Assembly: GCA_035455585.1 (NCBI GenBank)
Contig: DATIEW010000150.1
Location: 1-29,394 of the forward strand
Origin: Vicinamibacterales bacterium
Lineage (GTDB): Bacteria > Acidobacteriota > Vicinamibacteria > Vicinamibacterales > 2-12-FULL-66-21
Length of the DNA: 29,394 nucleotides
Reading direction: 5' to 3'
The translations under genes were made by a program, and so were the position numbers. Below the pieces are notes generated by a model that saw nothing but the letters and a program-made list of their open reading frames with translations, made no database searches and had not been told where the DNA came from. This document shows, one piece after another, positions 5,678-27,137 of the stretch (its first letter is position 1; each line of letters begins with the position of its first letter).

Positions 5678-6373
5678 TCAGTCGAACTCGCCGCCCGCGA
5701 TCCTCCGCGCCAGCTCGTCCAGCGACGCCACCCGCGGGCAGTCCGCGTCGGGCCTGAGATTCGCCTCGTCGAACAGCACGCCGCGCAGGCCTGCGCTGCG
5801 CGCGCCGGCGATGTCGACGTGGTAGAGGTCGCCCACGTGAACCGTCGTGTCGCGGCTGGCCCCGCTGCGGGCAAGCGCAATCTCGAAGAACCGGGGGTCC
5901 GGCTTTTCCACGCCCTCATCGGCGGAATCGAGCACGTGATCGAAACGACCCGCGAGCCCGAGCCTGGCGACGTGCGCTCGCAGCGTGCCGTTGGCGTTGG
6001 AGACGACGACGAGCCGCAGGCCTCTGGCGTGCAGGTTGTCCAGCGCGCTCACGACGCCGTCCGGCACCCACTCCCACAGGTTGCTGGTCGTGTGGTAGGT
6101 ATGCAGCTCATCGAGCGCACTGCTCGTCCGATCGGACAGCTCGACGCCCGCCATCGCGAGGACGAGATCGAAGTACAGCCACCCGCGGCTGGCATCGGTG
6201 CTCGACCCGACCGTGCGCAGGTCATCCAGGTGCCGGCGCGCCCGCGGATCGGCAGCCCGCAGCGTTTCGGGCGGTACCGCCACGCCGTGCCTGGCCAGAA
6301 CGTCGGAGATGCGCCACCAGTTGGGATGCATCAGGACGCCGCCCGCGTCGAGGAAGAGCGTCTCGAGAGGCAT
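5678..6373 (-). CDS. HAD-superfamily hydrolase, subfamily IA
   Basis: 231 aa. Motif I FLDAGGVL, motif II VVSNA, motif III EKPD, motif [15 protein letters not shown]. Confidence 0.92.
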
Positions 6374-6379
6374 TCTGCG

Positions 6380-6385
6380 AGTCTA
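6380..6385 (-). promoter_or_regulatory. Candidate -10 (TAGACT) of a leaderless promoter for the HAD gene
   Basis: Minus-strand TAGACT ends 6 nt before ATG 6373. No SD present. Confidence 0.55.
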
Positions 6386-6390
6386 CAGCG

Positions 6391-6418
6391 AACTCCCAAT
6401 CGCCAACTCCCAACTCCC
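6391..6418 (-). repeat. Degenerate inverted arm of the GGGAGTT heptamer (AACTCCC x~4 on the plus strand)
   Basis: Plus strand reads AACTCCCAATCGCCAACTCCCAACTCCC, the reverse complement of the downstream array. Confidence 0.85.
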
Positions 6419-6443
6419 GGCACCGATAACACCTCGGAGATGC

Positions 6444-6546
6444 GAGTTGGGAGTTGGGAATTGGGAATTGGGAGTTGGGAATTGGGAGTTGGGAGTTGGG
6501 AGTTGGGAGTTGGGAATTGGGAGTTGGGAGTTGGGAATTGGGAGTT
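6444..6546 (+). repeat. Tandem array of 14 heptamers GGGA(G/A)TT
   Basis: Counted by hand: 14 full units at 6449-6546 plus a partial GAGTT. Position-5 pattern is G,A,A,G,A,G,G,G,G,A,G,G,A,G. No spacers. Confidence 0.97.
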
Positions 6547-6570
6547 GACATTTCGGCATGCTGCTAGACT
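6545..6570 (+). promoter_or_regulatory. Candidate promoter of the GT4 operon: TTGACA (6545-6550) and extended -10 TGcTAGACT (6562-6570), leaderless
   Basis: TAGACT ends 6 nt before GTG 6577, with no SD. TTGACA is only 14 nt from the -10, which is short, so the -35 assignment is doubtful. Confidence 0.55.
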
Positions 6571-6576
6571 GAGCCC

Positions 6577-7875
6577 GTGCGGATTCTGTCGTTCACGGGC
6601 GGTGCCGGCGGCATGTACTGCGGCAGCTGCCTGCGGGACAACGCGCTCGCGGCCGAGCTGCTCGCACGCGGCAACGAGGTCGTGCTGACGCCGGTCTACA
6701 CGCCCACCCGCACCGACGAGCGCAACGTCAGCCAGCATCACGTGTTCTTTGGCGGCATCAGCGTGTTCCTCGAGCAGCACTCGTGGCTGTTCCGGCACAC
6801 GCCCCGGTTCGTCGATCGTCTCTGGGACGCCGAGTGGATCATCAGGATGGCGTCCAGACGCCAAATCAAGGTGGATCCGAAGGGACTCGGCGAGCTGACC
6901 GTTTCGATGCTCCGCGGCGAACAGGGATTCCAGCGGAAGGAGATCGCCAAGCTGCTGGCCTGGTTGACGTCGGAGCCGCGGTTCGATGTGATCAACCTGC
7001 CGTACACGCTGCTGCTCGGTGTCGCCGAACCCCTTCGCCGTACGCTTGGCGTGCCAATCTGCTGCACGCTGCAGGGCGAGGACCTCTTTCTCGACGGCCT
7101 GGGCGAGCCGTACAGGCAGCAGTCGATGGAGCTCATCCAGGCCGCGAGCGTGCACGTGGATGCGTTTCTGCCCGTGAGCCGCTACTACCTGGAATACATG
7201 CCCGGCTATCTCGGCCTTCCGCCGGAGAAGATGCGTCTCGTGCCGATCGGGATCAACCTCGAGGGCTACATGCCCGCCAGCGCGCGGCCGAGTCGCGATC
7301 CCTTCACGATCGGCTACCTGGCCCGCGTCGCTCCGGAGAAGGGCCTCCACGTCCTGGCCGAGGCGTACCGCATCCTGCGATCGCGGCCGGGCGTCGGCCG
7401 TTCGAGGCTCGTTGCGGCAGGCTACCTCGCGCCCGAGCATCAGGGATATCTCGACGGCGTCCGCAGGAGTCTCGAACAGTGGGGGATCGCCGGGGAGTTC
7501 GAGTACGTTGGTGAGGTCGATCGCGCGCACAAGATCGCGTTTCTACAGAACCTCGATGTCCTGTCGGTGCCCGCGACGTACCAGGAGCCGAAGGGTTTCT
7601 TCCTGCTCGAAGCCATGGCCACCGGCGTACCGGTCGTCCAGCCGCGCCGCGGCGCCTTTCCCGAGATCGTCGAGACCACCGGCGGCGGCCTCATCGTCGA
7701 AGCCGACAATCCGGACGCCCTGGCTGACGGGCTGCTGGAGCTGTGGCGCGACCCGGAACGCGCGGCCGCGCTCGGCAGGGCCGGCGCCGCTGGCGTGAAG
7801 GAACACTACACAGCAGGGCGGATGGCCGAAGAGGCCGAATCCGTCTACCGTGTGCTGAGTACGCGGAGACTCTGA
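6577..7875 (+). CDS. Glycosyltransferase family 4 (GT-B fold)
   Basis: 432 aa. [17 protein letters not shown], retaining-GT E-x7-E motif (EPKGFFLLE), [17 protein letters not shown]. Unusual N-terminal YCGSC. Confidence 0.93.
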
Positions 7876-8598: not shown

Positions 8599-8603
8599 TG
8601 CAT

Positions 8604-8663
8604 GGGCTATGGGCAATGGGCAATGGGCAATGGGCAATGGGCAATTGGGCAATGGGCGATGGG
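8604..8663 (+). repeat. Tandem heptamer array GGGC(A/G/T)AT, 8 units plus a terminal GGG
   Basis: GGGCTAT, GGGCAAT x4, GGGCAATT, GGGCAAT, GGGCGAT, GGG between the ATPase stop (8598) and the permease start (8718). Confidence 0.95.
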
Positions 8664-8717
8664 CCGTCATGAGGTACGAGCTGTGAGCCGACACCCCGTC
8701 GAACTCCACCTGGGCCG

Positions 8718-12056: not shown

Positions 12057-12124
12057 GGTATGGGCGATGGGCGATGGGCAATGGGCAAGCGGGAGGGGGA
12101 TTAGGGCACAGGGCACAAGGCAAA
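12056..12124 (+). repeat. Mixed G-rich heptamer cluster (GGGCGAT, GGGCAAT, GGGCACA)
   Basis: GGGTAT-GGGCGAT-GGGCGAT-GGGCAAT-GGGCAAGC-GGGAGGGGGATTA-GGGCACA-GGGCACA-AGGCAAA fills the permease/propeller spacer. Confidence 0.88.
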
Positions 12125-13566: not shown

Positions 13567-13672
13567 GCGGACGCGGCGGCGAAGAGTGCAGTGTCAGGCC
13601 CCCAACTTCCGCTTCCCGGAACTTGGGAGTTGGGAGTAGGAGATTGGGTGTTCGGCGGGCGGCGAGTCCGCC
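13566..13672. terminator. Long imperfect hairpin region between convergent genes, containing inverted GGGAGTT heptamers; possible bidirectional terminator
   Basis: GGCGGAC (13566-72) pairs with GTCCGCC (13666-72). Inner CCCAACTTCC (13601-10) faces TTGGGAGTTGGG (13623-34). No U-tract. Confidence 0.4.
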
Positions 13673-14140: not shown

Positions 14141-14200
14141 GAATGCTGATTGCTGAATGCTTCCGAATGGTGAACGTCGAGTTCCTTTTGCCTTGTTCCT
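14141..14200 (-). repeat. Two degenerate heptamer runs: (AAGGAAC-like)x4 and (CATTCAG-like)x~3
   Basis: Minus strand reads AAGGAAT-AAGGAAC-AAGGCAA-AAGGAAC ... CATTCAG-CAATCAG-CATTC. Confidence 0.75.
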
Positions 14201-14209
14201 TATTCCTTG

Positions 14210-23009: not shown

Positions 23010-23016
23010 TGTGGTG

Positions 23017-23074
23017 TCAACGCCAACTTCCAACTCCCAACCTGGGGGATTGGGAGTTGGAAGTTGGGAGTTGA
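23017..23074. terminator. Perfect 18-bp hairpin built from inverted GGGAGTT-type heptamers between convergent genes
   Basis: CCAACTTCCAACTCCCAA (23023-23040) and TTGGGAGTTGGAAGTTGG (23050-23067) with a 9-nt loop. Lies between stops at 23009 and 23082. Confidence 0.65.
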
Positions 23075-23081
23075 GCCGGTC

Positions 23082-27104: not shown

Positions 27105-27114
27105 TTTTCGAGCG

Positions 27115-27137
27115 CTGAATGCTGAATGCTGATTGCA
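27115..27137 (+). repeat. Short TGCTGAA-type heptamer run
   Basis: GCTGAA-TGCTGAA-TGCTGAT-TGC; same family as 14141-14160. Confidence 0.7.

Follow-up and report, generated by a model that had tools for sequence, protein, structure and literature searches.

A heptamer-armed palindromic repeat between two divergent genes of a Vicinamibacterales bacterium: a probable expanded copy of a dispersed intergenic family

The HAD-GT4 Locus

The window analysed here is the whole of contig DATIEW010000150.1 (29,394 nt), the longest contig of a Vicinamibacterales metagenome-assembled genome (MAG; GCA_035455585.1, here G000) that comprises 4.96 Mb in 911 contigs and is 73% complete. Its genes were called with our own simple coding-potential caller (4,368 genes, 88% coding). 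The subject is a spacer between two divergent genes that holds a long tract of G-rich heptamers. On the minus strand lies a HAD-family hydrolase gene (5678-6373; Pfam Hydrolase/HAD_2) starting at an ATG at 6373, and on the plus strand a GT4-family glycosyltransferase gene (6577-7875; Pfam Glycos_transf_1/Glyco_transf_4) starting at a GTG at 6577. An earlier sequence-only reading of this DNA noted that both genes have TAGACT exactly 6 nt before the start codon and lack a Shine-Dalgarno (SD) sequence, and a base-level check agrees: the -10-like hexamers lie at 6380-6385 (minus strand) and 6565-6570 (plus strand), and none of GGAG, GAGG and AGGA was found before the two starts. The GT4 hexamer is directly preceded by TGC, forming an extended -10-like element, TGCTAGACT (6562-6570). 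The TAG within each TAGACT is an in-frame stop, so neither open reading frame (ORF) can start further upstream. Motif I of the HAD protein, which has orthologues of 63-64% identity in two other genomes (G016 and G017), falls at residue 9 (D9), so that M1 is required as the start; the GT4 N-terminus MRIL is kept in ~25 orthologues, while the DNA upstream of the start is not. The arrangement had also been described as a mirror image. This holds only approximately, as the edge of the array lies 5 nt from the HAD -10 and 17 nt from the GT4 -10.

A profile of the repeat family described below places one whole element copy, in plus orientation, at 6379-6555 (two overlapping nhmmer hits, scores 56.7 and 22.6). 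It contains a C-rich arm of four heptamers, AACTCCC, AATCGCC, AACTCCC and AACTCCC (6391-6418), which TRF reports as period 7 with 4.0 copies and which fits the left arm of the profile. A loop of 23 nt (6419-6441) follows, delimited by alignments of family copies and beginning with GGCAC, where the family consensus has AAGGCAC. The G-rich arm (6442-6546; TRF period 7, 16.0 copies, score 175) consists of one degenerate unit, GCGAGTT (6442-6448), and 14 perfect GGGARTT units (6449-6546). The counts of about four and 14 repeats proposed earlier for the two sides are thus borne out, and each gene has G-rich repeats on its own sense strand because the element is palindromic, with the C-arm preceding the G-arm. 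The element ends with GTTGAC(A) (6544-6550), a terminus conserved across family copies; as had been pointed out, the last unit supplies the TT of the TTGACA at 6545-6550. With S for GGGAGTT and A for GGGAATT, the 14 units run S A A S A S S S S A S S A S, an order without period. They are pure, varying only at position 5 (G/A), and of the loop-proximal type. Purity and unit type, as read from the sequence, fit a recent expansion by slippage.

A Dispersed Palindromic Family

Alignment of compact copies gives the family consensus (CG)TGTCAAC, ACCCAAT CTCCAAC TCCCAAC TCCC, AAGGCAC(T)CAC...CCGGGAAC(C)TT, GGGAGTT GGGAATT GGAAGTT GGGAGTT, GAC(AC), with a loop of the form AAGGCAC...GGGAAC. The element is roughly 100 nt long and has about four heptamers per arm. 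A profile search with nhmmer finds 297 loci in the genome, of which 190 are near full length and three lie in the window. An inverted partner is present for 117 of 195 family arrays, and the C-arm precedes the G-arm in all cases scored (24:0). Departures from complementarity between the arms follow an identical pattern across copies, and the loop and termini are conserved; given the shared arm asymmetries and the conserved loop, the copies appear to stem from an oriented master sequence. Compensatory evolution of the arms was not detected (76.4% of cells paired, against 75.7% expected under independent variation). Beyond the termini, conservation extends for only ~5 nt, and head-to-tail clusters of copies occur.

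The copies are unevenly distributed among spacers, with 0.157 per convergent, 0.079 per tandem and 0.061 per divergent spacer (chi-square p=2e-7). In tandem spacers they lie a median of 12 nt past the upstream stop codon and 57 nt ahead of the next start, and their orientation relative to transcription is random (47:50). The copy between HAD and GT4 therefore belongs to a set of ~297 that favours convergent spacers and the 3' ends of genes, which speaks against the earlier view of it as a locus-specific tuner of a glycan-export operon. Where it stands apart is in the lengths of its arms. It is by far the most asymmetric of the 166 two-armed family loci: the arms differ by 0-2 units at 154 loci, by 13 units in the window copy and by 6 in the next largest case.

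How the family disperses has been approached through known mobile elements. It shares conserved termini with miniature inverted-repeat transposable elements (MITEs), but this identity was rejected, as neither a target-site duplication nor a transposase-bearing parent was found; a search of G000 for a parent through distant terminus pairs returned a sole pair, enclosing a TonB-domain gene. A RAYT (Y1 transposase) as mobiliser was likewise rejected, since PF01797 has no match in G000 (73% complete), in G022 or in G011, and RAYT genes in relatives are unrelated to element load. As short, high-copy, imperfect extragenic palindromes (297 loci; consensus RNA hairpin of -73 kcal/mol), the copies do have the general form of repetitive extragenic palindromic (REP) sequences and of the REPINs built from them.

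A longer variant of ~210 nt was also observed, in which the heptamer arms of the family surround a conserved core of ~110 nt (GGCACCTGGCTCGGGG...CAAGTTCCAGAAGTGCGGTCAAC...). It has ~30 copies of 70-94% identity, mostly in convergent or tandem spacers, with sites that include C313:13332-13571, C100:8691-8930, C552, C529 and C117 (loci L030-L036). It terminates in GGGAGTTGATCCG, often followed by an AGAACTC array. Neither the window nor seven long-variant loci gave a match in Rfam.

Heptamer Load of the Genome

The family is part of a much larger load of heptamer repeats. TRF finds 1,311 period-7 arrays in the whole genome, the commonest of all tandem-repeat periods, and these represent 188 classes of unit, the largest of which is AACTCCC/GGGAGTT (322 arrays). 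Intergenic DNA makes up 11.8% of G000 yet holds 689 of 780 solid heptamer arrays. Other abundant heptamer families, such as AACCGCG, AATGCTG and AAGAAGG, lack runs of three G (G3 runs). Period-8 arrays are also mostly intergenic (103 of 134); they may represent a class of their own or else heptamer arrays that have acquired indels.

Leaderless-Type Promoters and the Apparent -35

Genome-wide, TANNNT peaks exactly 6 nt before gene starts (107 genes against a background of ~18), with shoulders at 7-9 nt. A normal SD peak is also present, and the leaderless-type class makes up ~5% of genes; its promoters lack a -35 consensus and have a weak TGn. The pattern is kept in orthologues of both genes, a HAD orthologue (G017) having TAAGAT-N6-ATG and the GT4 orthologues L015 and L016 retaining ATAGACTGA 7-9 nt before the start. 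The genome-wide peak and this retention back the proposal that the genes are leaderless, and HAD and GT4 are likely, on these sequence patterns, to have two divergent leaderless-type promoters. Divergent spacers with such promoters on both sides number seven in G000. Similar promoters are known from Deinococcus-Thermus and Actinobacteria (PMC12340547, PMC4007540, PMC3898074, PMC3160421), where TANNNT also lies 6-8 nt before the start and an SD and a conserved -35 are missing, a description that both HAD and GT4 fit. However, leaderless genes make up 20-60% of genes there and ~5% here by our count. Zheng et al. analysed three Acidobacteria and, by computation, predicted leaderless genes in each of them (PMC3160421). 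The literature searched holds no transcription start site mapping for any Vicinamibacterales genome, and at most 0.11 of the sampled words were shared with RNA runs.

The TTGACA at 6545-6550 has the look of a promoter -35. It is instead the conserved terminus of the family, and the spacer between it and the GT4 TAGACT is 14 nt, against the canonical 16-18 nt; a scan of 6250-6700 found no canonical sigma-70 promoter. A functional -35 role was rejected on account of this out-of-register spacing and of the hexamer being the end of a dispersed element. TTGACA-like boxes of leaderless-type promoters stand at 17-18 nt in 12 cases and at 14 nt in two, one of which is the HAD-GT4 locus.

Beyond this locus, the family could act as a promoter-building element, whose outward TTGAC termini or arrays boost -10-only promoters and whose insertion beside a -10 is selected. 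The terminus is indeed -35-like, and at least 18 leaderless-type genes have an array directly beside their -10. In Deinococcus, where a -10 motif alone suffices, a well-placed -35 enhances such promoters at 17 bp, but a mis-spaced one, at 22 bp, gave no enhancement (PMC12340547). The spacing of the termini counts against the idea: TANNNT occurs 16-18 nt from an outward TTGACN terminus in only 1 of 240 cases, so that promoter donation by the terminus was rejected, although a small excess is seen at 14-15 nt (8 of 240). Furthermore, the abutting arrays are unrelated in unit, their placement within the free spacer shows no departure from uniformity, and the family prefers 3' ends and convergent spacers. 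A promoter-building role is accordingly considered quite unlikely.

The relation of arrays to promoters extends beyond the family. An array lies within 60 nt upstream of 32 leaderless-type genes, and at 18 of them its edge is no more than 9 nt from the -10; the units are diverse. Arrays ending 1-9 nt from a -10 are seen, for example, at C560:337, C710:1534, C318:2055, C727:14569, C328:1168 and C334:2008; since they end so close, the -35 and spacer region of such genes is wholly repeat DNA. Within the free spacer, the arrays of leaderless genes are spread about uniformly, and those of SD genes tend to keep away from the start. A specific anchoring of arrays at the -10 was rejected, as their position cannot be told apart from an even occupation of the spacer. 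On the simplest view, arrays take up DNA that is free of constraint, and beside leaderless genes such DNA reaches up to the -10. The closeness of arrays to genes may then serve as a natural footprint, from which the leaderless-type promoters of this genome would seem to require no sequence upstream of about -15.

Interpretation of the Expanded Copy

Taken together, the tract at ~6386-6550 is most likely an expanded copy of a palindromic repeat that is dispersed through the intergenic DNA of this Vicinamibacterales lineage, the copy being selfish or neutral at the locus. The loop-proximal GGGAGTT/GGGAATT units of the right arm would have been amplified to 14 perfect units, most likely by replication slippage, 7-nt units seeming to be strongly favoured in Vicinamibacterales. 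The copy sits in a divergent spacer between what appear to be two -10-only promoters of the leaderless type, each with TAGACT-N6-start and that of GT4 with TGn. The essential parts of these promoters probably lie outside the repeat, and the promoters themselves are presumably ordinary members of the ~5% class. Heptamer arrays would fill whatever spacer is unconstrained, and beside leaderless genes this free space would extend up to the -10. As the array is periodic and upstream of the -10, gain or loss of units leaves the promoter-proximal 30-45 nt unchanged; a change in unit number would alter only the distance between the promoters and the potential for non-B DNA. The element is best regarded as a probable selfish or neutral repeat at HAD-GT4 and not as a dedicated regulator.

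The sequence-only reading had placed the array among contingency loci; slippage in unit number would then reversibly tune the GT4-ABC export operon, the HAD gene or both. The array is long and, with 14 of 14 units GGGARTT, slippage-prone, and it belongs to the most expanded two-armed copy. In some pathogens, repeats upstream of the -35 can modulate promoters (for examples see PMC4679880). The phase-variable simple sequence repeats (SSRs) of Haemophilus, Neisseria and Moraxella are likewise pure, slippage-prone tracts beside promoters of envelope-related genes. However, contingency tracts lie in an ORF, in the 5' untranslated region (UTR) or in the -35/-10 spacer. Here neither the -35/-10 spacer nor the 5' UTR contains the tract, which lies upstream of both -10 elements (by 17 nt for GT4 and 5 nt for HAD), so that unit changes leave core-promoter spacing and proximal sequence unaffected, and the tract belongs to a genome-wide family of a free-living soil bacterium. 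The ~297 family loci stand beside all kinds of genes and are commonest where promoters are absent. Other long family arrays occupy convergent or tandem spacers, as on C113, where 13 units of the AACTCCC/GGGAGTT class fill a convergent spacer that has no promoter. The array is also not conserved in the orthologous GT4 spacer, and Rehm et al. (2015; PMC4692102) considered phase variation improbable for the comparable repeats of Xanthomonas. A tuning function is very unlikely on this evidence.

A structural role is a further alternative. The statement that G3-N4 repeats fit the G-quadruplex (G4) consensus holds in form, the window array having 14 G3 runs separated by 4-nt loops and scoring 1.29 in G4Hunter, and single-stranded DNA of the window element is predicted to fold as a slipped hairpin (-36.5 kcal/mol, z = -4.7). 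On such grounds the ~11 unpartnered G-arm units might form a G4, or the arms might extrude as a slipped cruciform, coupling or insulating the two promoters, with negative supercoiling between two divergently transcribing polymerases as the driver. GGGAATC-type repeats do form K+-dependent G4 in vitro, and their scarcity in divergent spacers was seen as consistent with G4 structures in vivo (Rehm et al., 2015; PMC4692102). Across the family, in contrast, the consensus arm has only three G3 runs (G4Hunter 1.10), and a canonical G4 motif occurs at 58 of 297 loci, which leaves G4 formation unsupported as the purpose of the family. Other abundant heptamer families of the genome have no G3 runs at all, and the arms lack compensatory evolution. 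Regulation by non-B DNA is therefore regarded as unlikely.

The locus could also be an artefact, either a chimeric join or a collapsed or mis-counted array, produced through a repeat common to hundreds of loci; the HAD-GT4 divergence or the number 14 would then not be real. HAD adjoins GT4 in none of the relatives, most of which have a co-directional gene upstream of GT4. None of the contigs in Logan assemblies of four soil runs spans the array, and exact-pattern scans of JGI metagenome contigs for the array gave no matches; a search for the exact GT4 protein found no record. Moreover, 87 arrays sit at contig ends of the 911-contig MAG. The array words reach depths in the thousands in the soil runs, because they are common to many loci and organisms. 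On the other side, the aperiodic S/A order lets long k-mers or reads thread the array, and an independent Logan contig (L037) matches exactly the HAD side, the loop and the first four units before ending inside the array. Contigs in soil runs X3 and X4 cover 6291-6477, and the depths of the two flanks track one another in all four runs (8.2/8.5, 3.0/3.1, 4.5/5.5 and 2.9/4.8). The usual upstream neighbour gene of GT4 was searched for in the MAG and not found elsewhere in it. An assembly error at this locus is thus improbable.

Several points nevertheless weigh against the view of an expanded copy that is selfish or neutral. The unit count and the adjacency of HAD and GT4 rest on one short-read MAG contig, and start positions are approximate, given the simplicity of the gene caller. 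In divergent spacers, an array lies within 80 nt of the start for 17 of 68 leaderless-type genes and 16 of 237 SD genes (p=9e-5), although this near-start excess is gone when whole spacers are compared (16 of 78 against 59 of 397, p=0.23). As to the dispersal route, target-site duplications, a RAYT and a transposase-bearing parent were all searched for, and none was found. That the element has no regulatory role we infer from its distribution. Finally, the most expanded two-armed copy lies in the under-represented divergent context, which could reflect local selection and not chance.

Distribution in Relatives

The 16-mer GGGAGTTGGGAGTTGG, with no more than one mismatch, occurs 498 times in G000 and 303, 285, 224 and 110 times in four sister genera (G022 303, G002 285 and G011 224). 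Most others have 0-7 occurrences, and 16 further families of the order have none; in a sample of 300 Acidobacteriota, exact matches to the 16-mer are essentially restricted to G000. A reversed control pattern, GGTTGAGGGTTGAGGG, gave 21-47 matches in G056, G115 and G162, which represent one genus of another acidobacterial family. As these matches show, other Acidobacteriota have abundant heptamer families of their own.

The idea that the array is conserved at this locus is contradicted by the closest relative, G022 (GT4 83% identical), which has the family but not in the orthologous GT4 spacer. In relatives, the spacers of GT4 orthologues contain other heptamer arrays (CCTGAGC, GAGGTCC), an 11-mer or nothing, and in 140 kb of relatives' loci period 7 is again the commonest while the units are different. 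In comparisons of L001-L029 with window positions 6374-6576, synteny breaks at the spacer, and the co-directional gene found upstream of GT4 in most relatives ends ...LNWLQPHEGN...FRARAFQ. Among HAD homologues, L046 (G014:C8) has a 12-unit GCAATCN array up to the start, then TACACT-N7-GTG, and in L044 (G016:C25) an AATCTGC-type array reaches the ATG. The literature searched on heptamer repeats in Acidobacteria or Vicinamibacter yielded nothing.

Comparison with Known Repeat Systems

The closest known system is that of the G-rich heptameric SSRs of Xanthomonas (GGGAATC) and Nostoc (GGGGA(C/T)T). In Xanthomonas, 186 arrays of 2-26 units (modal 4) include 70-75 inverted pairs and are ~90% intergenic; they lie 28 nt from the 5' neighbour ORF and are rarer in divergent (7-8%) than in convergent (16%) spacers, and no regulatory role was found (Rehm et al., 2015; PMC4692102). 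The present family shares the G3N4 unit, one or two positions from GGGAATC, and the occurrence of hundreds of dispersed arrays, ~90% of them intergenic. It also shares a modal arm of ~4 units with outliers to 14-26, inverted stem-loop pairs, convergent over divergent spacers and closeness to the end of the 5' neighbour ORF. In both systems a link to surface or virulence genes is missing and length is not conserved between related genomes. The 14 GGGARTT units fall within the pattern (GGGANTN)n of at least two units by which Rehm et al. define the class, but include no exact GGGAATC, of which an additional rule asks for at least one. The family is an additional member of this class in another phylum, the Acidobacteriota, with added conserved features: its paired form has GTCAAC/GTTGAC termini, a conserved loop and a consistent arm asymmetry. 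It differs further in that the consensus arm has three intact G3 runs, with a G4 motif at 58 of 297 loci, G4 formation by GGGARTT being predicted by sequence criteria alone.

REP sequences, the bacterial interspersed mosaic elements (BIMEs) and REPINs of Enterobacteria and Pseudomonas are comparable as short, imperfect, high-copy extragenic palindromes that follow genes or lie between convergent ones, sometimes in tandem clusters, and are independent of orientation. In contrast to these, the copies described here have no GTAG-type 5' end, a RAYT was not found in G000 or in the two most element-rich relatives, and the arms are tandem heptamers that expand and contract. Many unrelated intergenic heptamer arrays per genome are also found among the short tandemly repeated repetitive (STRR) sequences of cyanobacteria, the TAACTGA repeats of Beggiatoaceae, the four-heptamer elements of Geobacter metallireducens (PMC4679880, PMC2700814) and the genomes rich in long simple sequence repeats (LSSRs) of Mrazek (2007). 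For the STRR, TAACTGA and Geobacter heptamers, slippage with a 7-nt preference has likewise been proposed, and the preference for heptamers is ascribed to polymerase slippage by Mrazek (2007), as summarised in PMC4679880. However, TAACTGA repeats are mostly direct and lie just upstream of starts, whereas the main family here is palindromic and lies at gene 3' ends.

These results replace the account of a phase-variable G4 switch at a single locus with a genome-level view of repeats. In the Vicinamibacterales, which are abundant in soil, genomes are packed with heptamer arrays and with hairpins that have heptamer arms, and the poorly understood G-rich heptamer class of Xanthomonas and Nostoc is extended to another phylum. 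Heptamer arrays fill unconstrained spacers, break short-read assemblies and can mimic promoter elements, which bears in practice on the annotation of promoters and terminators in Vicinamibacterales MAGs.

TIGR02436 Genes between Heptamer Arms

A possible protein partner comes from genes of the PF05635/TIGR02436 four-helix-bundle family ('23S rRNA IVS protein', for intervening sequence), with three members in G000 and 29 hits in five relatives. At 20 or more of the 32 loci, which come from six genomes, the gene lies between the arms of an inverted heptamer array whose units are specific to the locus. The arms measure 25-79 nt, are 79-100% complementary and stand 460-850 nt from each other. At one such locus in G022, the gene P0001 (TIGR02436, 57 bits) is flanked by AACTCCC-type and GGGAGTT-type arms (L066 1329-1381 and 1931-1983); these arms are composite and without GTCAAC termini, and the enclosed gene is not a transposase. 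Across G000, genes enclosed by inverted arrays of the same family are not in excess over those between direct pairs (47 against 50), and an ordinary cupin is among the enclosed genes; the enclosure signal is accordingly specific to TIGR02436 genes. No paper on TIGR02436 genes with heptamer arms was found in the literature.

The link between TIGR02436 and heptamer arms is suggestive. Carried further, the GGGAGTT hairpin could be the gene-less form of a hitherto undescribed kind of foldback element, whose full-length members carry a TIGR02436/PF05635 gene between inverted heptamer arms, each gene with its own heptamer family, the arms changing by slippage and copies beside -10-only promoters giving heritable variation in expression. 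This proposal as a whole is speculative and rather unlikely. If the TIGR02436 link holds, it would provide the first candidate protein partner for the heptamer repeat class. Loci with enclosing arms include L066:1329-1983 (G022), L049:167-1150 (C328), L050 (C504:1449-2110), L055, L058, L060, L061, L063 and L070; the C504 copy of the gene is frameshifted.

Other Repeats in the Window

Of the two other family copies in the window, one was found by nhmmer on the minus strand at 13601-13654. The other, on the plus strand at 23012-23078, is a compact C-arm/G-arm hairpin in a convergent spacer and was recovered by TRF, in the array listing and by nhmmer. Further heptamer arrays of unrelated units occupy the spacers at 8602-8664, 12060-12122, 14141-14209 and 27114-27136, with ATGGGCA x9, ATGGGCG, GAATGCT/GTTCCTT and GCTGAAT as units. 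In the putative GT4 operon, one of these arrays separates the gene for the ABC ATPase from that for the permease, and it would be transcribed if the genes form a single unit.

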